This document shows positions 8,504-31,813 of a stretch of 64,000 nt of DNA, one piece after another. This stretch comes from Candidatus Bathyarchaeia archaeon (GTDB taxonomy: Archaea > Thermoproteota > Bathyarchaeia > Bathyarchaeales > Bathycorpusculaceae), in the NCBI GenBank assembly GCA_050015395.1, contig JBEKBM010000015.1, positions 11,544-75,543 on the forward strand. Reading direction: 5' to 3'. The notes beneath the pieces were generated by a model. That model was not told where the DNA came from. It worked only from the letters and a program-made list of their open reading frames with translations, and ran no database searches. Position 1 is the stretch's first letter. Every line of letters begins with the position of its first letter. A program made the translations under genes and the position numbers.

Positions 8504-8668
8504 TTTTTTACTCTTAGGGTTTCCTTCAAGTCATTGTATTGGGTGTCGATTTGCTTTTTTTGCGCCTTTAACGTTTCCTGTTCTTTTTTACTCTTAGGGT
8601 TTCCTTCAAGTCATTGTATTGGGTGTCGATTTGCTTTTTTTGCGCCTTTAACGTTTCCTGTTCTTTTT
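8504..8668. repeat. Exact 80-bp tandem duplication
   Basis: 8504-8588 equals 8584-8668 (period 80); it frameshifts the last codons of the 8568-10334 gene. Confidence 0.95.
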
Positions 8669-10334
8669 GTTGTCGTTCTTCAAAGAATTTTTCCCTTTTT
8701 CCCTCAGCTATTTTCAGTAGCGTGTTTACGGTGGTGAGGACTTTAGTGTAGTGAGATTCTGGTATTAATTCCCCATTTCTTTTCTCCCAGTCAAGGTAGG
8801 ATGTTACGTAATCTTTAACTGTTGATATCAATGCTTGTTCAGTTTCTTGATAATGTTCCGGAGAGTCTTTAAGGTTTTCTAACTTTTCTTGCAGTTTGAC
8901 AAGAACTTCTTGCAGGAAAAGGACGCCTTTTGATAACATTTCAAGATGGGCGATTCCATCCGATTGTTGTAATTTAACAACCTTGCGGCTGAAGTCCTCG
9001 ACTTCTTTTTCCGCTTTATCGAAGCTTACAGCTTGGCTTATTAACAGAGCCTTTGTCTCTACTCCTTTTGAAGTGTAGAAGTCTATGTCAGCCATAATTC
9101 CCTGTACGTCAGTTTGAGTAATGAGTGCATCAATCACCTTGCTGGACCCCCAATACCCTGAAATATCGTTCGATGACATTTGTGTTCTGGTTGTTATTGC
9201 TTCTTTTAATTTGTTATTAGAAACTTTTATGTTTCGCAAAACATCCCCAGAATAGTTTGCAAGGCATTTGGATACTTCATTTGTTGAGATATCAAGCGCA
9301 TTAACTGAGTTTCTGTCCAGGAACGGACAATTCAACTTAAAGTTTTCTTCGTATTCGTTCAGGTTTAAATCTATGTTTTTTAAGTCCTGGGGGATTGGTA
9401 GTTGTTTATTAGCGACCTCTTGAATCAAGTTAGCAAGATTAGAGCGATTTTTTTCTTGGTTGATTTTTATTTGTGGTCTTTCAGTCGAGTATTTTTTTAT
9501 GAATTTTTTTAATAATTCCTCGATTTCACCTAAATCTATATTATCGATGATAGCAAGGTTTACAGATGTGGGAAACGTTATTTTCTCGGCAATTACATAC
9601 GCCAAAAACCGCTCGACAAGGTCCTCTTGATTTTCTGAACGCAGCTGAAAGACGTATTTGGGGGGTTCAGGGTCCATCTGAGGTTTTGAGGGTTGACCGT
9701 ATATTATTACGATGTTTTCTCGGTATTCTTCATCCAACGGTGTCAAGATAGCTGAGAATGACCATCTTATAACATTGGGGCTGAGCATTAAGTTGTTTAA
9801 ATCGTTCAGTCCCTCTTCGAGTGTTGTCACGTACTTCTTGATTTTGCTCCCTCTGTAACCTACGCATTCTTGAAGTACATCGTACTCAGAAACGTTATTT
9901 TCGATTGTTTCGTTTGTTTCAACAGTCACTTTTTGAGGAGTAAGATTCAAGTCTGTTTGGCTCTTTGAGAATATTTCTTGATAGTTAGTGCCGTTTTCTT
10001 TGAAGAACTTTTCAAAGTTCATACTGTATTTGAAGGCGTCGGATAGGTTGATCGCGAAGTATTGGAGGAATGGAACCAGAATGGTTTCCCTTCCCGGCTG
10101 CTTTGAACGAACTATCTCTCCGCTTCCGAATACTTGTTTGTTGCCCAGATGCGTTTTAACTGGGTACACAAAATAGAATTTTTGGCCTGGTTGAAGTAAA
10201 TATGAGTATTTTTGCGCGCTTAATAATTCAGCTATGTGGTTATCTGCATCGAGTTCTGATGGGCGGGTGTCCCCCGAAATTAGGTATTTGTAGCCGCTGG
10301 TTGAATGAAAGTTTATTCCTTGTATGAACTCCAT
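8568..10334 (-). CDS. Large GTPase-associated protein (globular N-terminus, helical/coiled-coil C-terminus), function unknown
   Basis: Start re-assigned to ATG 10334 (MEFIQGINFHSTSGYK) because it overlaps the stop of the upstream GTPase pseudogene as TAATG. The C-terminal half is rich in E/K/Q/L helical sequence. Confidence 0.8.
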   Translation of the reverse strand: MEFIQGINFHSTSGYKYLISGDTRPSELDADNHIAELLSAQKYSYLLQPGQKFYFVYPVKTHLGNKQVFGSGEIVRSKQPGRETILVPFLQYFAINLSDAFKYSMNFEKFFKENGTNYQEIFSKSQTDLNLTPQKVTVETNETIENNVSEYDVLQECVGYRGSKIKKYVTTLEEGLNDLNNLMLSPNVIRWSFSAILTPLDEEYRENIVIIYGQPSKPQMDPEPPKYVFQLRSENQEDLVERFLAYVIAEKITFPTSVNLAIIDNIDLGEIEELLKKFIKKYSTERPQIKINQEKNRSNLANLIQEVANKQLPIPQDLKNIDLNLNEYEENFKLNCPFLDRNSVNALDISTNEVSKCLANYSGDVLRNIKVSNNKLKEAITTRTQMSSNDISGYWGSSKVIDALITQTDVQGIMADIDFYTSKGVETKALLISQAVSFDKAEKEVEDFSRKVVKLQQSDGIAHLEMLSKGVLFLQEVLVKLQEKLENLKDSPEHYQETEQALISTVKDYVTSYLDWEKRNGELIPESHYTKVLTTVNTLLKIAEGKREKFFEERQQKEQETLKAQKKQIDTQYNDLKETLRVKKNRKR

Positions 10335-11246
10335 TATTCCACTCCGAATGTATCTCTTAACCACTCTAATAGGCGCACGTACTCTTGCCCGTTGTATTCA
10401 ACTATCTTTATGTGCTTACGGTTATTTGTATATAGTGTACTTTGGACAGCCATCTCTATCTATTTCTTCCTTTAATTTGGAGTAAAAAATTTTGAAAACC
10501 GTTCCATCACGCTTGCCAAAACGTAAAATATAATCGTATACTTTGGGAAGATGTTTTTCAGCAATTTCTTGTAGTTGCGTATCACTTGGATTTTCATAGC
10601 CTGGCAACATGAACTTATCATATTTAGAAAATAACAATGCTATGCCTCTTAGATTTCGTCCATGTGCGATGGCGTACTGATTAAATGTATCAAGATACGA
10701 TGCTAAAGCAATGTCAGGGGATTCTCGTTGAGCTAATAGGCTGGAATCTGCCACTAGAATTATCCCTTTTGCTGTGAGCACATTGTTGGTTAAATACTCG
10801 GCGTCTTCTTGTTGTAAACCAGCCTCTAGCAATTTCTGTTTAACTTGATCTGGACTCAACAAAAATTAATTCTGGGAATACCTTAATTAGCGTACTAGTA
10901 GTCTGTCCGCTCATATCTGCGAAAATTAGTCTAATGCTCCTTTTTGACATCAAGAATCGTTGTTTAAATTCTATGTTCAATTGGACTTTTGTATCCTTGT
11001 CACTGTTAGAAGAAAAAATGGAGCTCTTCCATCCAATACGAGGTTATATGCCTCGTGATATAGGTCGAATCCTTGAGCTCTTACAAAAGGCGTGTAGATG
11101 CATTTGAACTCGTCTCAATAATTAACCAAAGTTTGGTAGAGTAAAATTAGGCTTGTTGTTTTTCCAGACGACCGAGGTCCTATAAAGATGACGGTTGCTG
11201 CTGTATCATGTCTATTATCTCTGTTACCTTGTGCGCTACTGCTCAT
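10334..11246 (-). pseudogene. Second TRAFAC-class GTPase paralog, disrupted
   Basis: Reconstructed by hand: GPRSSGKTT; in-frame TGA at 11115-11117 where the paralog has Arg; frameshift near 11015; IFADMSGQ; frameshift near 10861; KGIILVADSS, LLFSKYD; frameshift near 10430; VEYNGQEYVRLLEWLRDTFGVE*. Colinear with 11376-12293. Confidence 0.88.
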
Positions 11247-11375
11247 TTTTGGGTCGCTCTTTTCTTTGGTTAGAGGGTATCCTTCATTATACGGCGAACG
11301 CTGGTCTGGAATGTAAGTGCCCAAGTTAGGGGTTCTTTGAACCCTGTTTGAATTAGGGCCAGATCCTTTGGTTAA

Positions 11376-12293
11376 CTATTCACCAAAGGTGTCTCTAAGC
11401 CATTCGATAAGTTGCCGGTATTGTTGTACGCTGTATTCAACCCTGTTTTGGTGGCGCGCATTGTTGGTATTCACTACAAAAAGGCGCCCACCTTCAGCAT
11501 CGTCTTGTGGCTTCAATACGGAATAGAAAATCTTGAATAGTGTTTTGTTATTTTTAGTGAAATTTGACGCATAATTTTCAGTTTGACACAGGTAGTTCTT
11601 TGCCAGTTCTCTTAATTTTTCAGCCTTTGGGTTGCCGTAGCCAGGAACAGAAAACTGGTCAAATTTCGTTAGTAACAAGGCAAACCCTTTTGGTGCTTCA
11701 CCGTGCATTTCTGCATACTGATAAAGGTTGTTTAGGTATTTCGCTAACTCAGGGTCTGGAGACTCTGGGGTCCCAAGTTTACTCGCGTCTGCGACTAGGA
11801 TTACTCCTTTTGATGAAAGCAGCGTATGTACTAAGTAATCGACATCTTCTTGGTTTATGTTAGCCTCTTCGAGTTGTTCTCGAACCTTTTGTGGGCTTGA
11901 GTTGATGAGGGTTGGAAAAACTTTCATTAATGTTTTGCTGATTTCTCCGCTCATATCGGCAAAGAGCAGTTTGACCTTTTTCTTTTTGTGTATAATGCCG
12001 CCGTCGAATTCGATGTTGAATTCAATTCTTGCGTCTTTTTTGCTTGGCGGCGTCGGTGTAACTGAAATTCCATTGAGTATGAGGTTGTTTGTTTCTACAA
12101 ACAGGTCTAGTGCGTCGTTTTTAATCGATGGAGTGTAAGTACATTTTAAATCGTCTCGGTAATCTATGAGTGTTTGGTGAAGTAAAACTATGCCCGTGGT
12201 TTTTCCTGACTTTGATGGTCCGACGAAGATGACGCCTGCACCTTCCCCTTCGTTATCTTTATTATCTTTACTTATTGGTACTTTAGTGCTCAT
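11376..12293 (-). CDS. TRAFAC-class P-loop GTPase (double-GTPase/GAP-system-like)
   Basis: G1 GPSKSGKTT, candidate G2 Thr in VTPTPP, G3 FADMSGE, G4 LTKFD. Confidence 0.88.
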   Translation of the reverse strand: MSTKVPISKDNKDNEGEGAGVIFVGPSKSGKTTGIVLLHQTLIDYRDDLKCTYTPSIKNDALDLFVETNNLILNGISVTPTPPSKKDARIEFNIEFDGGIIHKKKKVKLLFADMSGEISKTLMKVFPTLINSSPQKVREQLEEANINQEDVDYLVHTLLSSKGVILVADASKLGTPESPDPELAKYLNNLYQYAEMHGEAPKGFALLLTKFDQFSVPGYGNPKAEKLRELAKNYLCQTENYASNFTKNNKTLFKIFYSVLKPQDDAEGGRLFVVNTNNARHQNRVEYSVQQYRQLIEWLRDTFGE

Positions 12294-13781: not shown

Positions 13782-14015
13782 ATGCAAGAAAGTCGAGTGG
13801 GTTCCAAAGGAGAGCTATTTCCTCCCAAGGAAATGAGAGAAAAACTAGGGCTTAAAGCTTCCACTAAGGTAATATTCACAATCGAATCAGGAAGACTTAT
13901 CGTTGAGCCTGTTCCCACCATAAAAGAACTTATTGAGGCAGGCACAACCATTGAAATAACTCTGGATGAATTTCATAAGGACAGAAAAGAGCTCTCCAGG
14001 CTGGCTGAGGCTTGA
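13782..14015 (+). CDS. AbrB/MazE/SpoVT-family antitoxin
   Basis: RVGSKGELFPPKEMREKLGL...VIFTIESGRLIVEP; overlaps the PIN gene start. Confidence 0.88.
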   Translation: MQESRVGSKGELFPPKEMREKLGLKASTKVIFTIESGRLIVEPVPTIKELIEAGTTIEITLDEFHKDRKELSRLAEA

Positions 14016-14482
14016 AACTTCTACTGGATACAACATATCTTCTTCCAAGCGTAAGCATTGCTATCAAAGAAGTTTCTAAAGACGCAATAATCAAGCTAAA
14101 CACGAAAGGGTATAATATAGTCGTTAGCCGAATAAGCATTTTCGAACTTTTAGCAAAAAGCTCTAAATTCGTTGTCAAAAATGAGCTTTCGCCCGAAAGA
14201 GCAGCGCTCGGCATAAGAGCGATACTTTATGACGATATTATTGAAAAAATATCAACTGACAGTAGCAAAGTCATGTTAACAGCGTTCAAACTACGAAGCT
14301 TGATGAATGACTTTATCGATTGTCTCATAATTTCAACTGCTCTCAACAACTGTGATGCCTTAATAACAGAGAACCAAGACATTCACAACCTAAAGAAAAA
14401 CAAGAAATACCTCGAACTAGTAGCAAGTATAAACCCAAACTTCAAAATCCAAACTTTAGCCCAAATTTGCAGCCAGCAATAA
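14012..14482 (+). CDS. PIN-domain (VapC-like) toxin
   Basis: LLLDTTYL, SIFEL, DFIDCLIISTA, LITENQD. Confidence 0.9.
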   Translation: MKLLLDTTYLLPSVSIAIKEVSKDAIIKLNTKGYNIVVSRISIFELLAKSSKFVVKNELSPERAALGIRAILYDDIIEKISTDSSKVMLTAFKLRSLMNDFIDCLIISTALNNCDALITENQDIHNLKKNKKYLELVASINPNFKIQTLAQICSQQ

Positions 14483-14550: not shown

Positions 14551-15579
14551 ATGGCTGAAGATATTTGGGTTCCGATGGATGGAGACACCTTCGTAACTAA
14601 AGACGGCTTCATACTCAACACTTTTGGATACGAGCATCCGGACGACCGCGTTTTTGCATTTCTCAAGTACATTCCAGCGAAATTCAAAGAACTCTTTAAC
14701 GTTGAAATGCTGGAGAGAACCTGGAAATTCGGCGAGAACCAGCTTTTCAGAGCAGAAAAACTCTACACGGCTAAAAACTACCAGACTTTCATTGAAGCCT
14801 TCCGCAAAAACTTTCCAGACTACCTGTACTACTGCCCTTTCCGAAACAAGGAGTTAATAACTGCACCGTTCGAGTTAATCCAGCAGGTTTTTGTCCCTAA
14901 AGACCGTTTGGTCTGGCTGGAAAACCTGCCGAAACGTGATAAGCTGCAACAAATGGCTTTAGACCTCATCCATTTAATATCCAAAGAATCAAACGTGAGC
15001 TTAAGCGATTTTGGGGTTCACGGCTCCATCGCTTTGAACATGCATGCGCCAGAATCAGACATAGACTTTGTTATTTACGGCACAGAAAACTTCCGCCTAG
15101 TAGAAGAAGCCATAGCAAGACTTGTTAACACTGGAAAACTAAGCTACATTGTTGGCAACCGCTTGGAAGCCGCAAGAAAATTCCAAGGAAAATACCAAGG
15201 CAAAATATTCATGTACAATGCAACGCACAAGCCAGAAGAAGTCAAAGCGAAATATGGAGCGTATCGCTATATACCGCTTGACCCAGTGCTCTTCCAAGCC
15301 ACTGTTTGCGATGACACTGAAACCATGTATCGGCCAGCCACCTACAGAATCTCAGGCTACAAACCCCAAGACGACCAATCAGAACTTGACTTGGACAAAA
15401 TTCCCACCCAAGTTGTCTCAAACATCGGCTGCTACAGAAATATCGCCCGCAAAGGCAGCGAAATCAAAGTCGCAGGCAAACTAGAAAGAGTCGAATCAAC
15501 AACTTCAAACGAAGTCTTCTATCAAGTGGTTGTTGGAACAGCAACCTCAGAGGAAGAATACATTTGGCCAACAACTTGA
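14551..15579 (+). CDS. Archaeal pol-beta-superfamily nucleotidyltransferase (COG1665-like), paralog 1
   Basis: FGYEHP N-terminal motif, GVHGS...[10 protein letters not shown]-terminal beta-rich [20 protein letters not shown]. Confidence 0.85.
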
Positions 15580-16637
15580 AACTTCGCGACCGCGATGCAA
15601 TCCAGACAAGTGAAGGCTTAATCTTCCGCGTCTTCGGCTACTCCCACCCACCAGACGCTTACATCTGCGATGCGGAATATGCTTCAGCAAACATTTTCGC
15701 GTCAACCGACCCGAGAGCGCCAAGAACCGGCAGAAACCAGCTTTACTACAAGTTCTATAATGACGAAGGCATGAAGTTGGTAGCTAAGAAGTATCCTCAG
15801 TACTTGGTTTTTCATGAGATGCTTGGGCTAAAAATTGTGGGCGTAAACCAGAATGCTATCATGGAGGCAAGAAAACCTGAGGAGCAACTAGAGGCTTTGC
15901 TTGAGGCTGGGCCAACGGACGAGCTGCTGGGTGCAATGGAACGTGTGCTTAACATAGCAGTTGAAAATTCGGGGTTAAATGCGCGAAATTTTGGAGTTTT
16001 CGGCTCCATGCTTCATGGTTTCCATCACCCAAAGTTTTCAGACATAGACCTGATAGTTTACGGCAAAAAAGAAAACTCCAAAATGAGAAAAACGCTTGAA
16101 GCACTATACGGCGATAAGAGTTCAGGGTTGCATAACGAGTTTGAGTCAGACCGAGCCATGGCGGGCAAGGAGTGGCGATTCAAAAATTTCACTGTTGAAG
16201 ACTTCGTTTGGCATCAGCGAAGAAAGCAAATCTACGGTTTATACGACGATAAAGCCAGTGGAAGAACCATAAAAGCCGAGCTTGAACCTGTAAAGACTTG
16301 GAGCGAAATCAAATCAGAATACGACCCCAAAACAAGAATCCAACAGAAAGGCTGGGTTAAACTCAAAGCACGCATAACAGCGGATGACGAAGCACCTTTC
16401 ATTCCATCAATCTACGGCATTGAGCCAATGGAAGTGTTAAGCGGCGGACCAGAAGCGCTTGAAGCTAAGAGGATTTTCTCTTTCATGGAAGAGTTCCGTC
16501 AGCAAGCACAAAAAGGCGAAGTGGTAATTGTTGAAGGCAACCTCGAAAAAGTAGTGTCGCCAACAGAAAGCTTCCGTCAGGTTACTTTGACTTATTGCCC
16601 ACGCTACTACGAGCAAACCTTGAAAGTGCTGCATTAA
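15564..16637 (+). CDS. Archaeal pol-beta-superfamily nucleotidyltransferase (COG1665-like), paralog 2
   Basis: LRDRD...FGYSHP, GVFGS...[29 protein letters not shown]. Confidence 0.85.
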
Positions 16638-17653
16638 ACATGTGACAGAACCATGTAATCCGACGGCTTATTGCCAAGAATCAAACGGTAATATTCGCCA
16701 CCGCTTTTCTTATTGGTTACCAATTCAACTTTTCCCTGAGCCTCAACCGCTTCACCGTTCTCTGCTTGTTCACAGAACCTGCCGCGGAAAGAAACAATCT
16801 CAATTATTGGCTGCAACTTGGGTCCTTCAACAATTCGGACATTTTCAACCTTGTAGGTGCAGGGTGTGAAAAGCGAATCGGTGCTGTCTGCTATTTTGGC
16901 TGTTATTTTTGCGTAGCCGCTGTTCTTGAAGCACACGTCCCCATACTGCTCGTTTACTTCGCTCCAATCTTTCACAAAACGGATAAAATAGTCTGTTCCC
17001 ATGAACTTGCCCTGAAATGCTTTGCTGCTTTCGACTAAAACGAAGTCTTCGAAGCTCATCTGGGTGTCTTTCGAACGGAAATCGAATAGCTCCTGCAGCT
17101 CCGCTCGTGTATAAGGCTTGAACCCCGAATCTTTGCTTTTAAGCAATCTCTGCAACGCGGCGTAAGCTTTTCGGCAGTTATCAACACCGTAAACCAGCGG
17201 GTCAATGTCTGATTTCTCAGTTGTTAATCCTGCCATTATCGAGCCTGAAATGCCTATGCTGCTCCAAGGGATGTTCGCTTCTGCCTTTAGGGTTTCAGCC
17301 AGACGCACCGCCTTACTCTCTAATGTCGTAAGGTGCTTGGATAGTCGTAGTGACGCAAGCTTTTCTGGAGGCTGATAATGCTCAGCTATGTCTGCAATTG
17401 GGACTTCACAAAGCGTTTCACCAAAGACTGGGTCAAAAACTATGAGGTCAGGGTGATTTTGTTGCAGGTACTTGAATCTGTCACCAAGGCTGTACACTTT
17501 GCCGTAAGTGCCTTCTTTGCCTTGCCTTATGCCCTGTGGCGATGGAATAAAACGTGGAAACGCAATAATCTTGAACAGGGGGTGAACTAAGCCTTTAACA
17601 TCAAAAACCACGTTACTTTTAGTCTTAATCAAGTCTCCTTCACGTGCCCTCAT
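16634..17653 (-). CDS. Archaeal pol-beta-superfamily nucleotidyltransferase (COG1665-like), paralog 3
   Basis: AREGD...VKGLVHP, GISGS...SDIDPLVYG, FCEQAENGEAVEAQGKVELV. Confidence 0.85.
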   Translation of the reverse strand: MRAREGDLIKTKSNVVFDVKGLVHPLFKIIAFPRFIPSPQGIRQGKEGTYGKVYSLGDRFKYLQQNHPDLIVFDPVFGETLCEVPIADIAEHYQPPEKLASLRLSKHLTTLESKAVRLAETLKAEANIPWSSIGISGSIMAGLTTEKSDIDPLVYGVDNCRKAYAALQRLLKSKDSGFKPYTRAELQELFDFRSKDTQMSFEDFVLVESSKAFQGKFMGTDYFIRFVKDWSEVNEQYGDVCFKNSGYAKITAKIADSTDSLFTPCTYKVENVRIVEGPKLQPIIEIVSFRGRFCEQAENGEAVEAQGKVELVTNKKSGGEYYRLILGNKPSDYMVLSHV

Positions 17654-17730
17654 CCAAATCCCCCTTACTTAAGCATAGACTACTTGTAGTTTTTCACAAA
17701 CTTAAATAAACGTTTTTTGAACCACTTAAG

Positions 17731-18690
17731 ATGGACACGCCAATGAGCAACCAAGAAAAAGCACAACACATCTCAAAATGTTTACAACTAGCGATACTGC
17801 TTGAAGTCAGCGCAGAAAAACCAGGCAACGTCAACTTCACCACGGGCTTTGAGGGGACAACATGCCAGCATTTCTTGGCTTCAGCCATTGCTGCAGGACC
17901 ATCCTTCCAAAAGGCTGCTTACCGTGGGGTTTCAGTGGCAGAAAACAAACTTGGCATAAGCGAGGTTGGCTTGGGACAACTCATAAAGACCTGCGCCAGC
18001 GATGTTAATGCTTGGCAAAGGGGCGGAAACACCATCTTGGGCACAATAATGCTTTTTGCGCCAATCGCTGTCGCCGCAGGCATGACGCCAACCAACAAAA
18101 ATTACCTTTTTGATTTTTCTGTTTTGCGCAAAAACGTTGACTTGGCAGTTAAATCAACCACAGCGTTGGACTCAGTGCACCTCTATGAAGCAGTGGACAT
18201 TGCCAGCCCAAGCGGTCTTAATGACGCGCCAGACCTTGACGTTACCGACCCGCACTCCAAAGAGCGCTTAATAAAAGAGAATGTTACTTTGTATGAAGTT
18301 TTCAAAATCGCCTCAGCATACGATGACATTTGCGCTGAATGGGTACACAATTACCCAGTAACATTCGACTTAGCTTATCCTTACTTGATTGAGCAGCTCA
18401 AAAGTAAACCTTTGAACATGGCAGTCGTTCACACATTCCTAAAAATCCTCTCAGAACGCCCTGACACTTTTATAGCAAGAAAAGTAGGGAAAGAAAAAGC
18501 ACAAGAAATATCGTCAGACGCTAAGGCTGTTTTGGAGCTTGGCGGATTAGAAACCGAGAAAGGCAAAAAAAGCCTCACAGCATTTGACAAGAAACTACGG
18601 CTATCCCAAAACAAGTGCAATCCCGGAACTACCGCGGATTTAACAGCGGCTGCTTTGGCGCTTTGCACCCTTAGCGGATACAGGCCTTAG
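17731..18690 (+). CDS. citG: CitG/MdcB-family (triphosphoribosyl-dephospho-CoA synthase-like) protein
   Basis: LEVSAEKPGNV, NTILGTIML, PDTFIARK, NPGTTADL. Confidence 0.85.
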   Translation: MDTPMSNQEKAQHISKCLQLAILLEVSAEKPGNVNFTTGFEGTTCQHFLASAIAAGPSFQKAAYRGVSVAENKLGISEVGLGQLIKTCASDVNAWQRGGNTILGTIMLFAPIAVAAGMTPTNKNYLFDFSVLRKNVDLAVKSTTALDSVHLYEAVDIASPSGLNDAPDLDVTDPHSKERLIKENVTLYEVFKIASAYDDICAEWVHNYPVTFDLAYPYLIEQLKSKPLNMAVVHTFLKILSERPDTFIARKVGKEKAQEISSDAKAVLELGGLETEKGKKSLTAFDKKLRLSQNKCNPGTTADLTAAALALCTLSGYRP

Positions 18691-18781: not shown

Positions 18782-19009
18782 GTGACTGTGATGGCTCAGG
18801 TGCAACTTAGACTGCCAGAAAAAACGTTAGAAGAGATTGACCGTTGGGTAGCAGAAGGCAGGTTCAAAAGCCGAAGCGACGCTATTAAAAGCATCATTAG
18901 CTTCTATGAGGAACGGGAGAAAACACGCGAGTTCTACAAGATGCTGCTTAAGCGCAGCCAAGAAGCCAAAGAGCACCCTGAAACGCTTGTTTCCTTAGAG
19001 GAAGCGTAA
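18782..19009 (+). CDS. Ribbon-helix-helix (CopG/MetJ-like) antitoxin; likely start ATG 18791
   Basis: QVQLRLPEKTLEEIDRWVAEGRFKSRSDAIK. Confidence 0.88.
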   Translation: MTVMAQVQLRLPEKTLEEIDRWVAEGRFKSRSDAIKSIISFYEEREKTREFYKMLLKRSQEAKEHPETLVSLEEA

Positions 19010-19010
19010 C

Positions 19011-19278
19011 TTGCTATTTAAAGTGCTTATGCATCCTAAAGCTGCTAAGGCACTGCAAAAATCGGATGCGCCGGACAAGGTGAGAATAAATGAGGCGCTT
19101 AAGGAACTTGCTGGTGATCCAACGAAAGTTGGGAAACAATTGAAGCTTTCGGATTTTTGGAGTTTAAGGATAGGCGATTACTGTGCCATTTATGAAATTG
19201 ATAGAGAAAAATCAGGTAGTGGTAATTTTCATTGGGCATCGAAAGAACGTTTATAATGACTTCTCAAAAATGTTATAG
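19011..19278 (+). pseudogene. RelE/ParE-family toxin, frameshifted
   Basis: LKLSDFWSLRIGDYCAIYEID (usual DYR is DYC). A frameshift in the A-run at ~19207-19211 moves the expected tail NQVVVIFIGHRKNVYNDFSKML* into another frame. Confidence 0.82.
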
Positions 19279-20596: not shown

Positions 20597-21961
20597 CTAG
20601 TCAAAGTTGTATGCTTCTTCTCCATGCTGGCTAAGGTCTAAGCCGTCTTCTTCTTCTTTAGGACTTACTCTTAGTGGCGAGAAGAAATCTACTACTTTCA
20701 AAAGCGCGTAAGAACCGCAAAATGCAAAGGCAGACACGACTAATACAGCGAGCACTTGGATGCCGAGCTGAGCAGCGTTGCCAGAGAATAATCCTTGCAC
20801 GGCAGGATTAACTGCGGCGGTTGCGAATAAGCCTATTGCGACTGCGCCGATGATGCCGCCGATTCCGTGGCATGCGAAAACGTCTAATGTGTCATCTATT
20901 CTTGACCTGCCGGCTCGCCAGTTAGCCACCAAGTTGCAAACTATCCCTGCAACCAAACCAATAATCACTGCTGCAGTAAAATTAACGTAGCCCGAAGCTG
21001 CTGTAATGGCTGCCAAACCACATACCGCACCCACTGCAATGCCTACTGCTGAAGGCTTACCCTTGATTAACCAATCCATTATCATCCAGCTTACGGCTGC
21101 GGCGGCGGCTGCCAAGTTGGTTGCCACAACGGCAGAGACAGCAATGTTGTCGGCTGCTAATGCGCTGCCACCGTTGAAGCCGAACCAGCCGAACCACAGT
21201 AAGCCTGCGCCTAAAATTACGTAGGGAATGTTGGTTGGTTTAAACTCAGTTGCCGCTGATGCTTGTTTGCTTGCGCCTTTTTGGTCTAAGGCTTTGAGTT
21301 GATCTTTCCAGTAAACGTAGCCTTTTCTTCTGCCAACAACAAGCGCCGCTGCCAATGCAGATAATCCTGCAGTCGTGTGTACAACTATGCCGCCTGCAAA
21401 ATCCACCGCGCCCAAAACGTGTAACCACCCGTTGGGGTTCCACATCCAACAAGCGATGGGCGAGTAAATGAAGGTTGACCACAAAACGACGAAGATCAGG
21501 AGTGATTTGAAACGGATTCTTTCTGCGCATGCGCCTATGATTAGTGCTGGTGTGATTGCGGCAAACTTAAGCTGGAACGCGAAGAATAGTATTTCTGGAA
21601 TGGCTGGCGCGTTAGGGCTAACGGTATTTATGGTTATGCCGTTTAATCCGACGAGAGACAAGTTGCCTATTATTCCACCTATGCTTGGTCCATAGACGAG
21701 GCTATAGCCCCAAAAGAACCATATGAGACTGACCACTGCAAAAATGATGATGCATTGGACTAGCGTCGAGACAAGGTTCTTTCTTCGGACTAAGCCGCCG
21801 TAAAAGAAAGCTAAGGCTGGGGTCATTAGCATTACAAGAGTTGTTGACATTAGAACCCAAGCGATGTCTGCTGCTCCCACGTTTGTTCCCTCGATAGCGT
21901 TATTACAGCTTATTTGTTCTTCTTTCTTGGCAAAACTAATATTTAAACTATGCATTCGCAT
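20597..21961 (-). CDS. amt: Ammonium transporter (Amt) paralog 1
   Basis: LVMLMTPALAFFYGGL, DFAGGIVVH, LWFGWFGFNGGS, DDTLDVFACHG, GLDLSQHGEEAY. Start uncertain. Confidence 0.95.
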   Translation of the reverse strand: MRMHSLNISFAKKEEQISCNNAIEGTNVGAADIAWVLMSTTLVMLMTPALAFFYGGLVRRKNLVSTLVQCIIIFAVVSLIWFFWGYSLVYGPSIGGIIGNLSLVGLNGITINTVSPNAPAIPEILFFAFQLKFAAITPALIIGACAERIRFKSLLIFVVLWSTFIYSPIACWMWNPNGWLHVLGAVDFAGGIVVHTTAGLSALAAALVVGRRKGYVYWKDQLKALDQKGASKQASAATEFKPTNIPYVILGAGLLWFGWFGFNGGSALAADNIAVSAVVATNLAAAAAAVSWMIMDWLIKGKPSAVGIAVGAVCGLAAITAASGYVNFTAAVIIGLVAGIVCNLVANWRAGRSRIDDTLDVFACHGIGGIIGAVAIGLFATAAVNPAVQGLFSGNAAQLGIQVLAVLVVSAFAFCGSYALLKVVDFFSPLRVSPKEEEDGLDLSQHGEEAYNFD

Positions 21962-22160
21962 TGATTATTAGGCTAAATATTGATAAATGTCCAATTAACC
22001 GTTTATAATCCTGATATTCATAAAACATTTAGCTAAAAAAAGTTTGGTAATCGTAAACTTGTCCAAAAAATGGCGTTAATGCAATAGCTTGTCAAATAGC
22101 CTGTTAAGCCTAAAGGTTTCGGCTAATACAAAATAGAGAAAAAAGAGCCTTGGTTATGCT

Positions 22161-23432
22161 CTAATCTAGTTGAAAGGCCTCTTCGCCATGTTCGGCTAGG
22201 TCTAAACCTGCATCTTCTGCTTCCTCGCTAACACGTAGTGGCGAGAATACGTTCACAAATTTAAGCAGTAAGTAGGAACCGAAGAATGCAAACGGCACCA
22301 CCACGCCAATTGCTACCAACTGAGCAACCAGTTGGCCCGGGTTTCCGAAGAATAAACCGCTTGCACCGTTTATCGCTGCTGATGCGAATAAGCCTGTTGC
22401 GATTGAACCCCAAATTCCGCCGACGCCATGGCATGCAAACACATCCAGTGCATCGTCTATTCGTGATCTGCCTGCTCTCCAGTTAGCCACCAAGTTGCAG
22501 ATAACTCCTGCTACTAAACCAATTATTAATGCCGATGGTATGTTGACGTAGCCTGATGCAGGAGTAATTGCAACTAATCCAACAACGGCGCCAGCAGCGA
22601 TACCTACTGCTGATGGTTTCCCTTTAATTACCCAGTCTGCAAGCATCCAGCTTATAGAGGAAGCCGCTGCTGCTAAGTTTGTAACTACAAGCGCTGAGAC
22701 AGCTAAGTCGTTTGCGGCTAATGCGCTGCCAGCATTGAAGCCAAACCAGCCAAACCACAGTAACGCTGCGCCTAGCAGTACATATGGGATGTTGGTTGGT
22801 TTGAATTCTGCTGCATGGTTTTTTTGATCCAAAGATTTCATATGATTCTGCCATGGGACAGCGCATCCTTTTCTTCTGCCTACTACAACTGCTGCTGCTA
22901 ACGCTGAAATGCCTGCTGAAATGTGTACTACTATGCCTCCTGCAAAGTCAATGGCGCCAAAGACGTGAAGCCAACCGGTTGGATTCCATACCCAGCAGGC
23001 TATTGGGCAATAGATAAGTGTAGACCAGAGTACCATGAAGATAAGTAGTGACTTGAATCGGAATCTTTCTGCGCAAGCTCCAATGATTAGTGCTGGTGTT
23101 ATGGCTGCGAACTTGAGCTGGAATGCGAATTGTAATAGTTGAGGAATTTGTGGTGCAAGTGCAGTGTTAACCGTATTTATGCTTAGGTCGTTCATGCCTA
23201 GTAGGCTTGGGCTCCAGCCGATCAAGCCGTTGACGCTGTTGCCGAACACAAGGCAGTAGCCCCACAGTGCCCAGACTATGCTTACGACTGCGAATATTAC
23301 GAAGCATTGAACAATTGTTGATACCAGGTTTTTCTTTCGCACTAGGCCTCCGTAGAAGAATCCTAGTGCTGGCGTCATTAGCATGACTAGTGCTGTTGCC
23401 GTTAGGACCCATGCTATGTCTCCTGCTGCCAT
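22161..23432 (-). CDS. amt: Ammonium transporter (Amt) paralog 2
   Basis: Same signatures including both pore histidines (DFAGGIVVH, DVFACHG). Confidence 0.95.
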   Translation of the reverse strand: MAAGDIAWVLTATALVMLMTPALGFFYGGLVRKKNLVSTIVQCFVIFAVVSIVWALWGYCLVFGNSVNGLIGWSPSLLGMNDLSINTVNTALAPQIPQLLQFAFQLKFAAITPALIIGACAERFRFKSLLIFMVLWSTLIYCPIACWVWNPTGWLHVFGAIDFAGGIVVHISAGISALAAAVVVGRRKGCAVPWQNHMKSLDQKNHAAEFKPTNIPYVLLGAALLWFGWFGFNAGSALAANDLAVSALVVTNLAAAASSISWMLADWVIKGKPSAVGIAAGAVVGLVAITPASGYVNIPSALIIGLVAGVICNLVANWRAGRSRIDDALDVFACHGVGGIWGSIATGLFASAAINGASGLFFGNPGQLVAQLVAIGVVVPFAFFGSYLLLKFVNVFSPLRVSEEAEDAGLDLAEHGEEAFQLD

Positions 23433-30817: not shown

Positions 30818-30864
30818 TTGTTAACTTTAAATAACAGTTGTTAACTATTATTAACATATGTTAA
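30818..30864. promoter_or_regulatory. Repeated TTGTTAACT boxes and a palindrome over the MNT start codon
   Basis: TTGTTAACT at 30818 and 30838; TTAACATATGTTAA at 30851-30864. Probably autoregulatory (inference). Confidence 0.5.
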
Positions 30865-31385
30865 TTAAAGATAACAATTACAAGGTTATGAAGTTATTTT
30901 TTGATAACCCTGATGGGAAATTTCACATCAGAGAAATAGCTCGGCAAACCAACTTATCAGCGCCCGGCGTCCTTAAAATATTAAAGAAACTCAAAAAAGA
31001 AACTCTCTTAGTATCAGAAAAAGAAAACGTTGTTGAGAACGTCAAGGCTTCAAGAAATGAAAAATTCTTTTTGCTTAAAAAATGTTACAATTTTCTTTCA
31101 TTTTATGAGTCAGGTTTACTTGACTTTCTCAAAGATAAGTATGAAGAACCAGAGGCAATAGTTGTTTTTGGAAGCTATTCGGATGGCGAAGATACTTCTG
31201 AGAGCGATATAGATGTTGCAATTGTAACGAAGAAGTCAGTTGAGTTAGATCTTAAGCTGTTTGAAAGTTTACTAAAAAGGAAAATAAACGTATTAGAAAT
31301 TCAAATAGGTGAAAGCGGGAAGGAATTTTTGAACAACTTAGCAAATGGAACTGTGGTATCCGGCTTTTTGAGGGTGCTGCAATGA
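30858..31385 (+). CDS. HTH + minimal nucleotidyltransferase (MNT) antitoxin
   Basis: FHIREIARQTNLS HTH; VVFGSYSDGEDTSESDIDVAI. Confidence 0.9.
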   Translation: MLIKDNNYKVMKLFFDNPDGKFHIREIARQTNLSAPGVLKILKKLKKETLLVSEKENVVENVKASRNEKFFLLKKCYNFLSFYESGLLDFLKDKYEEPEAIVVFGSYSDGEDTSESDIDVAIVTKKSVELDLKLFESLLKRKINVLEIQIGESGKEFLNNLANGTVVSGFLRVLQ

Positions 31386-31813
31386 TTGAACGTTTTCAGT
31401 ACTATTTAGATGCAAAGTTGGTTAGAAAAGAGAAAGTTGATAAAGAAGAAGCTAAATCCTTGATGAAAAAAGCTGTGTATCGCTTGAATTATGTCAAGAA
31501 ACAGGAGATAAATGAGGATACAGCGTCTTTTATTTTTGAAGATGTATACGAGAGTCTTAGGGAAGCTTCTCAATCTTTAATGTCCTTGAAGGGTTATAAG
31601 CCATACTCTCATGAAGCTTTGATTTCGTTTCTAAAAGAGTTTTATAATTTTTCAGCGTCAGAAATCTCGACTTTTGATCGTTTTAGAGCTTTGAGAAACA
31701 AGACTGTTTACTGTGCGGTTTTTGTTTCCGTGGAAGTTTGTCAAGAAGCTTTGGATTTTTTGGAAGATTTCTTGCCTAAATTAAGAAGAGAATTTGAAAG
31801 TTCCAATGTTTAA
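31382..31813 (+). CDS. HEPN-domain protein (partner of MNT)
   Basis: ATGA overlap with MNT; GYKPYSHEALI, FRALRNKTVY (Rx4Y variant). Confidence 0.82.
   Translation: MIERFQYYLDAKLVRKEKVDKEEAKSLMKKAVYRLNYVKKQEINEDTASFIFEDVYESLREASQSLMSLKGYKPYSHEALISFLKEFYNFSASEISTFDRFRALRNKTVYCAVFVSVEVCQEALDFLEDFLPKLRREFESSNV

Follow-up and report, generated by a model that had tools for sequence, protein, structure and literature searches.

In a 64,000-nt stretch of a Bathyarchaeia contig (hereafter the window), three copies of a three-domain nucleotidyltransferase family (hereafter NT; the copies of the window are NT1, NT2 and NT3) adjoin a gene of the ATP-dependent triphosphoribosyl transferase family CitG. 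The family has a common fold and conserved catalytic residues, and it is linked to CitG and to methanopterin genes both by genomic position and by co-occurrence. From its neighbourhoods and distribution, we propose that the four genes of the window may be part of a pathway making the tail of methanopterin, or of a methanopterin-like one-carbon cofactor, via CitG/CitX-like chemistry, a proposal to which we give an even chance. Methanopterin is the one-carbon carrier in methanogenesis, anaerobic methane oxidation, the archaeal Wood-Ljungdahl pathway and bacterial methylotrophy, and its tail consists of ribitol, alpha-ribose-5-phosphate and 2-hydroxyglutarate. To our knowledge, enzymes for the ribose-phosphate-hydroxyglutarate end have never been assigned, although older genetics in Methylobacterium reportedly linked a CitG homolog (orf7) to dephospho-methanopterin synthesis. 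Our literature search (supplements excepted) returned no paper on the NT family, on CitG in methanopterin synthesis, or assigning those tail steps.

The four genes are tightly packed. NT1, a three-domain Pol-beta-type nucleotidyltransferase of 342 aa (14551-15579, + strand; subfamily D of the four described below), overlaps its paralog NT2 (357 aa; 15564-16637, + strand; subfamily C) by 16 bp at 15564-15579. The ttaa at 16634-16637 is common to NT2 and the converging NT3 (339 aa; 16634-17653, - strand; subfamily A) as overlapping stop codons, and NT3 is in turn divided from the CitG-like gene (319 aa; 17731-18690, + strand) by a divergent spacer of 77 bp (17654-17730), as read from the sequence. 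The layout given in the preliminary description, with its overlap, shared TTAA and short divergent spacer, is borne out by the coordinates of the open reading frames (ORFs) and by the letters, and so is its account of three diverged paralogs: the proteins align over their full length at 23-26% mutual identity (BLASTP E 5e-17 to 3e-26), and all keep GxxGS...SDID and an N-terminal GxxHP. A genome-wide search of the source genome (2.59 Mb, 42 contigs, 98.9% complete) found three NT genes and a single CitG copy in total. Within the spacer, 21-29 nt upstream of the citG ATG, the A/T-rich box ttaaataaa (17702-17710) may serve citG as an archaeal TATA element, its mRNA then being leaderless or having a short leader. 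Much of NT1, and portions of the remaining genes, are covered by contigs from peat metatranscriptome libraries; because these are only 90-95% alike, they stem from relatives, and gaps in their coverage carry no information. The NT1/NT2 junction is bridged by such contigs in both of two peat studies. As presence in an RNA library is no proof of transcription, we take them as a hint of expression only. The differences between NT1 and these contigs lie mainly at third codon positions (34 of the 40 listed), which fits purifying selection.

The NT proteins keep the GS and DxD residues of the nucleotidyltransferase site. In an alignment of 122 family sequences (residue numbers are those of NT3), G134, G137, S138, D149, D151, G156, G307 and E310 are invariant, and G21, H24 and P25 of the N-terminal G..HP motif are nearly so. 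The catalytic GS/DxD site is therefore intact in all paralogs, and the G..E motif of the OB domain (G307, E310) is conserved as strongly as the active site. Both GS and DxD are retained in 218 of 220 family ORFs collected, the exceptions being two Hermodarchaeota subfamily B copies with DxN (L073:9078-10109 and L083:9015-10046; L-numbers denote sampled NT loci, and G-numbers sampled genomes). These may be catalytically impaired partners of the adjoining A copies. The idea that subfamily D copies are dead enzymes was ruled out, as their PDxD keeps both aspartates. The strand expected to bear the third catalytic acid varies: all of 18 NT1-type sequences have N223 and A224, with no acid there, all of 20 NT2-type sequences have K237, E239 and P242, and subfamily A reads F-F-I-R-x-V-K, again with no acid. 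The differing strands first noticed in the window (FMYNA, AELEP and YFIRF) thus reflect a real difference that is subfamily-specific and conserved within each subfamily. The invariant E310 of the OB domain might substitute as the third catalytic carboxylate.

An AlphaFold model of NT3, built on the 122 family sequences (mean pLDDT 97), places a Pol-beta palm at residues 105-230. The palm matches Pol X (3au2; Z 8.0 over 88 residues, root-mean-square deviation 2.8), TUT7 (Z 7.9) and Pol beta (Z 7.6), with palm matches spanning Z 6.9-8.0, and nearly all of the top 50 structure matches to it are NTase-fold proteins. Residues ~240-339 are modelled as an OB fold, supporting the OB-like C-terminus proposed earlier; in VIA searches it scored Z 8.0-8.6 against the MCM N-terminal, SSB, RPA and editosome OB domains. 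The N-terminal domain of ~100 residues, which carries G..HP, is beta-rich in the model and had no counterpart among the top 50 matches of wide VIA searches; we leave its fold unclassified and do not claim novelty for it. No whole-chain relative emerged from Foldseek against the PDB with the full NT3 model (no match at E<=1e-3), and a profile of the three paralogs gave 0 matches at E<=1 against the sequences of solved structures.

The two recognizable domains raise the question of an RNA substrate. The NT proteins could be RNA- or tRNA-acting nucleotidyltransferases, with the modelled OB fold binding nucleic acid in the manner of SSB, RPA, MCM N-terminal and editosome OB domains (Z ~8), and with a palm like that of Pol X, TUTases, TRAMP and CCA enzymes (Z 5-8); their linkage to one-carbon cofactor genes would then be incidental. 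The palm is the only part that aligns to RNA nucleotidyltransferases, and weak MTPAP-like central-domain matches occur in 8 of the 122 members. We consider this explanation improbable. Those Z values lie within the range that the search tool calls a common arrangement, and no RNA-processing genes recur beside the NT family, the distribution of which, described below, also points elsewhere.

Existing family models capture these proteins poorly. NT1 and NT2 pass the cut-off of Pfam NTP_transf_2 (PF01909; 23 and 27 bits, respectively), which is matched by 100 of the 122 members, and NT3 has no Pfam match. Among the 122 members, Pfam and NCBIfam yielded generic nucleotidyltransferase matches and no model specific to the family. 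A TIGR00535 match of NT3 (19 bits versus a cut-off of 233) was dismissed as noise. In a profile search of 1.84 billion cluster representatives, 1,464 clusters were found at E<=1e-3. Homologs of NT3 at 79-91% identity, some from Bathyarchaeia metagenome-assembled genomes, are named only 'predicted nucleotidyltransferase' or 'hypothetical'.

The fourth gene product matches Pfam CitG (PF01874) with 228 bits versus a cut-off of 27 (E 2e-67) over profile positions 2-283 of 284. Against the NCBIfam CitG/MdcB equivalogs it reaches at best 56 bits versus a cut-off of 280, with only the C-terminal third aligned, and the closest solved chain is 3h9p. By these profile scores it is a clear member of Pfam CitG, but not a true triphosphoribosyl-dephospho-CoA synthase as delimited by the NCBIfam equivalog cut-offs. 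CitG and MdcB displace adenine from ATP to give an alpha-glycosidic ribose-5-triphosphate adduct; CitX and MdcG then pass its phosphoribosyl unit on to a hydroxyl, and pyrophosphate is lost. The same logic of CitG plus transferase, familiar from citrate lyase and malonate decarboxylase, could operate here in a true CitX/MdcG-like system that places a CitG-made phosphoribosyl group on a serine of an unrecognized carrier protein, and the OB or the N-terminal domain of NT could dock a protein. We see only a slim chance of this. Neither the citrate-lyase-type acyl carrier protein (PF06857) nor CitX (PF03802) was found genome-wide, which extends to the whole source genome the absence of citrate lyase and malonate decarboxylase carrier genes that had been reported for the window; no conserved small carrier-like gene accompanies the module across lineages, and its neighbours are enzymes of small-molecule cofactors.

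The linkage to CitG is specific to one NT copy. Comparison of match coordinates in 16 sampled genomes of the taxonomic family of the window placed CitG at a distance of under 150 bp from the NT genes in 10 genomes and ~1 kb away (up to about 1.1 kb) in four; in G300, of the same family and 90% complete, no CitG was found. One NT copy also abuts CitG in genomes of many other families (G248, G254, G165, G073, G093, G278, G206, G025, G266, G033, G101, G017, G088, G120 and G085), and this copy belongs to subfamily A in every classified case, NT3 being its ortholog. Where a distant family has only one, divergent NT, this gene overlaps CitG in 5/5 genomes. The preliminary description had all three paralogs locked to citG. 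This holds for NT3, as the widely conserved neighbour, but not for NT1 and NT2, since the D-C pair lies away from CitG in Asgard archaea and several Thermoproteota lineages.

Subfamilies were called from a maximum-likelihood tree of 38 members, by assignment with subfamily hidden Markov models (HMMs), and from a second tree of 137 members comprising a random 45 of 100 A and 40 of 64 B sequences together with all 29 C and all 23 D sequences. All three methods agree on four subfamilies, A, B, C and D, each of which is a clean split in the 137-member tree (supports 0.99, 0.80, 1.0 and 1.0, respectively), the labels in that tree coming from HMMs seeded on the 38-member tree. NT3 was assigned to A, NT2 to C and NT1 to D, the last with a margin of 445 bits; subfamily B was not found in the source genome. 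A and B are adjacent in 37/80 loci from GTDB species genomes, Asgard lineages included, in a set retrieved with a 7-sequence alignment and biased to proteins carrying DIDLIVYG. D and C likewise form a conserved unit in several Thermoproteota families and Asgard genomes, with D upstream and overlapping or closely spaced with C (L005, L019, L023, L037, L040, L121-L127, L133, L135, L136, L138 and L140). The pairing of A with B and of D with C is conserved in both Thermoproteota and Asgard archaea. With four old subfamilies, the triplet of the window is an A copy beside an old D-C pair and no recent local triplication. This four-subfamily framework, in which the genes of the window are placed as D, C and A with B lost, is newly offered here.

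The NT genes recur among methanopterin genes, as seen from Pfam annotation of neighbours and purpose-built HMM maps. In L008, L009, L013 and L015, compact clusters take the form of a flavoprotein that is DmrX-like and has Fe-S domains, MptD (DHNA), an MptE-like protein, MptA (GCHY-1), DUF447, CitG, NT-A and NT-B, with a radical-SAM pterin methylase (HMPTM zinc ribbon), DUF1152 and DUF22 nearby. In two Asgard operons (L139 and L141), the gene order is DmrX-like, MptH-like (Pterin_bind), MptA, NT-A and NT-B, with CitG 3-4 kb beyond. FTR or MCH directly abuts NT-B or NT-D in a further 15 loci (L017, L018, L023, L039, L090, L093, L094, L099, L102, L128, L129, L132, L134, L135 and L137). In L137, the order is FTR, NT-B, NT-A, an ECF-S-like protein and a PfkB kinase, followed further on by MCH, a RimK-type ligase and CitG. 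The same trio of mch, glutamate ligase and CitG appears in a gene table for Methylomonas sp. DH-1 (PMC11533326), where, as far as that table goes, mch, an alpha-L-glutamate ligase and a CitG-type gene adjoin. In at least 22/80 loci, an NT lies no more than 300 bp away from CitG or from a methanopterin gene, a lower bound because many contigs are short and the helper HMMs were made from few Thermoproteota sequences. The source genome itself carries MptA, MptE, MptG (two copies), DUF447, the pterin methylase, FTR (two copies) and MCH, scattered on other contigs.

Several further genes accompany the module. An ECF-S-component-like membrane protein (weak ECF-ribofla_trS matches) is a recurrent immediate neighbour of NT-A or CitG. 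It occurs in 16/80 loci, NT-adjacent in 12, and was seen in L005, L007, L019, L031-L033, L036, L038, L040, L042, L044, L045, L050, L054, L090, L093, L094, L096, L100, L130 and L137. It might import a cofactor precursor. Its use as a salvage marker in genomes lacking MptG was rejected, as G162 has both MptG and the transporter, and several MptG-less genomes have no transporter beside the module. A ~470-aa protein with a winged helix and a PfkB kinase domain (L017:10678-12060, L137:8098-9531, L090, L093, L100 and L055) and a related stand-alone protein of ~160 aa without Pfam match (L005:8898-9389, L006:6414-6905, L007:5348-5827 and L019:11204-11683) repeatedly adjoin NT-A, CitG or D-C. No homolog of the ECF-S-like protein, the winged-helix kinase or the ~160-aa protein was found in the source genome. 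Between NT-B and CitG of the two Asgard operons (L139:3138-5319 and L141:7150-9336) lie a TrmB-wHTH plus TiaS-TCKD protein and a Pfam-less 350-aa protein, which are further candidates, as yet unassigned. In Hermod- and Promethearchaeota (L059, L061, L063 and L065), the A-B pair has a conserved ~480-aa protein of no clear family before it and a small Molydop_binding protein of FwdD-like size after it; next after this, L059, L061 and L063 have a membrane H+-pyrophosphatase.

Co-occurrence across genomes extends this picture. Among 301 sampled Thermoproteota genomes, 128 carry both NT and CitG, 10 NT only, 13 CitG only and 150 neither, so that CitG is present in 128 of the 138 NT-positive genomes. 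Re-searching of 'CitG-only' genomes with a larger profile gave NT matches in 8/10, three of them at E<=1e-40. Within the Asgard sample (n=91; counted by hand from two search tables), NT was found in 62 genomes and CitG in 72: both in 58, NT only in four, CitG only in 14 and neither in 15. NT-bearing genomes of other labelled lineages had CitG in 5/5 cases. The family also accompanies other pterin-cofactor genes, being present in 74/80 FTR-positive and 97/110 MptG-positive Thermoproteota genomes. As many as 64 NT-positive Thermoproteota genomes have no FTR, which indicates that the family tracks pterin-cofactor genes more broadly than it tracks the methanogen-type one-carbon pathway. Another phylum, that of a Theionarchaea/Thermococci-type metagenome-assembled genome (G301; n=133; hereafter Thermococci-type), has FTR in four genomes, all four among the five with NT; CitG is common there, though NT and FTR are almost wholly lacking. 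The tracking of CitG and methanopterin genes, with NT not found in 150/301 Thermoproteota and 128/133 Thermococci-type genomes, argues further against an RNA-acting family. Synteny and phylogenetic profiling had been suggested in the preliminary description as a check of the CitG linkage: that linkage is conserved for subfamily A, but CitG occurs without the NT family in at least 118/133 genomes of the Thermococci-type phylum.

In the scheme that we propose, the CitG-like enzyme would displace adenine from ATP and place an alpha-ribosyl-5-triphosphate on the ribitol hydroxyl of the pterin-aminophenyl-ribitol intermediate. An NT protein would then take the ribose-5-triphosphate of this product as an NTP-like donor, and its GS/DxD two-metal site would link the alpha-phosphate to the hydroxyl of an acceptor, which in classical methanopterin is 2-hydroxyglutarate, and release pyrophosphate. 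NT3 (subfamily A) would be the CitG-coupled enzyme, and the D-C pair NT1 and NT2 could form a two-subunit enzyme, add a different head group or use a related donor. The substrates, the order of the steps and any heteromer are what we infer from this context. A model in which NT takes the product of CitG would account for the closeness of A to CitG and for the conservation of the catalytic site. Of the functions offered earlier, a CitG-plus-nucleotidyltransferase system acting on a methanopterin-linked cofactor fits the neighbourhoods and the counts, while protein phosphoribosylation and an RNA-acting set gain nothing from the context.

A number of observations weigh against this pathway. Around the NT/CitG cluster of the window, a Pfam scan of the window proteins revealed no other methanopterin gene, and the cluster is bracketed by type II toxin-antitoxin pairs, MazE-like plus PIN and RHH (CopG) plus ParE-like (13782-14482 and 18782-19256). 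G077, a genome of the same genus, carries CitG on another contig, and the Asgard D-C pair stands amid unrelated genes (enolase, LarA-like, KTI12-like and ThiD/ThiN). CitG was found without NT in 14 of the 72 CitG-bearing Asgard genomes. In the Thermococci-type phylum, CitG is present in 123 genomes and NT in five, so CitG works there without the NT family; these phylum-scale counts, and the explicit counter-example that they provide, are newly offered here. Six FTR-positive Thermoproteota genomes are without NT; two of these six (G183 and G240) have CitG and gave no NT match even with the larger profile. The RFAP synthase MptG had no match at E<=1e-10 in 41/138 NT-positive Thermoproteota genomes, 34 of which carry both NT and CitG; in these, either MptG is too divergent for detection or a precursor is salvaged. 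No similarity to CitX or MdcG was found by sequence (three NT proteins and 122 family members, E<=0.01). Finally, the one phosphodiester of classical methanopterin leaves two to five paralogs unexplained, as does our model the predicted OB domain, a fold more typical of nucleic-acid binders.

In another explanation, the NT family serves methanopterin-type synthesis at another step, for example by nucleotidylation (such as adenylylation) of an intermediate or of an acceptor acid, or by adding lineage-specific tail decorations, with CitG only loosely coupled. All context evidence fits this equally; many genomes have CitG but no NT, the presence of two to five paralogs in a genome speaks for several different reactions, and unassigned genes travel along with the module (the winged-helix PfkB kinase, the ECF-S-like protein, the TiaS-TCKD-domain protein and the ~160-aa protein). 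Even so, no neighbour of subfamily A is as tight or as widespread as CitG, which often overlaps or nearly abuts it, and hand-over of the CitG product fits this tightness better than an unrelated step would. We rate this explanation as unlikely.

The toxin-antitoxin pairs that flank the cluster, together with weak MntA matches in 4/122 family members, could also point to a defence or MNT-like toxin-antitoxin set of nucleotidyltransferases. This we regard as very remote: the NT proteins have ~340 aa in three domains and no HEPN partner among their neighbours, they are vertically conserved across whole families in stable synteny, with no patchy mobile distribution seen, and their differences from relatives fall mostly at third codon positions.

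The paired arrangement of A-B and D-C suggests, from gene order, two-subunit enzymes or different acceptors. Taking the methanopterin-tail proposal one step further, A-B and D-C could be two old two-subunit phosphodiester-forming transferases that, with the CitG-like enzyme, supply the missing tail enzymes, the second pair adding an undescribed tail variant in Bathyarchaeia, Asgard and related archaea. We put this forward tentatively, as a possibility that is rather more doubtful than probable. If it is true, these archaea make structurally new methanopterin derivatives. The proposed pathway, if true, would fill in the rest of a cofactor route known from textbooks, show that CitG/CitX-type chemistry reaches beyond protein prosthetic groups to a free cofactor, and provide markers to predict the cofactor form in uncultured archaea such as Bathyarchaeia and Asgard archaea. 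The module offers concrete, expressible candidates, namely one CitG-like enzyme and one to four nucleotidyltransferases, together with a specific chemical prediction.

The remainder of the window holds several other features. Upstream of the cluster (8568-12293) are a 598-aa protein without Pfam match, a DO-GTPase-like P-loop protein (11376-12293; weak PF19993/PF19975 matches) and a short degenerate paralog ORF (11115-11324). Downstream, two tandem paralogous membrane proteins of 454 and 423 aa (20597-23432) are ammonium transporter-like by eye. A long sugar-modification island (28338-54709) contains many GT1, GT2 and GT4 glycosyltransferases, an FdtA-like protein, a DegT aminotransferase, radical SAM/SPASM, ATP-grasp and HAD proteins, a hexapeptide transferase and methyltransferases. 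Within it, a 175-aa Polbeta/NTP_transf_2 protein is followed by an overlapping 143-aa ORF without Pfam match (30858-31813); the two may form a toxin-antitoxin pair of the MNT type with no relation to the three-domain NT proteins.

Compared with known systems, the NT proteins share the palm fold, the GS loop and the DxD motif with the Pol-beta superfamily (Pol X, TUTases/TENTs, CCA-adding enzymes, CD-NTases and MNT), but no match extends beyond the palm, and neither the N-terminal ~100 residues nor the fused OB domain and its invariant G..E motif were seen among the matches listed. With known enzymes of methanopterin synthesis (MptA, MptD, MptE, MptG, MptH, the pterin methylase, DmrX and MptN), the family has operons and genome distribution in common, and it differs from them in its proposed role, as none of these enzymes makes the ribosyl-phosphate-hydroxyglutarate part of the tail. 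The closest parallels are CitG with CitX and MdcB with MdcG, where a CitG-family gene is likewise genomically coupled to a nucleotidyltransferase-fold protein. The NT proteins lie outside the CitX and MdcG families by sequence and differ in their three-domain build with an OB fold, and the CitG-like protein of the window scores far below the equivalog cut-offs of true CitG and MdcB. In citrate lyase and malonate decarboxylase the acceptor is an acyl carrier protein, absent from the source genome as judged by PF06857, whereas the donor and acceptor proposed here would be small-molecule cofactor intermediates. The chemistry itself would be alike in both: a ribose-5-triphosphate adduct is formed from ATP, and its phosphoribosyl unit is passed to a hydroxyl with loss of pyrophosphate.

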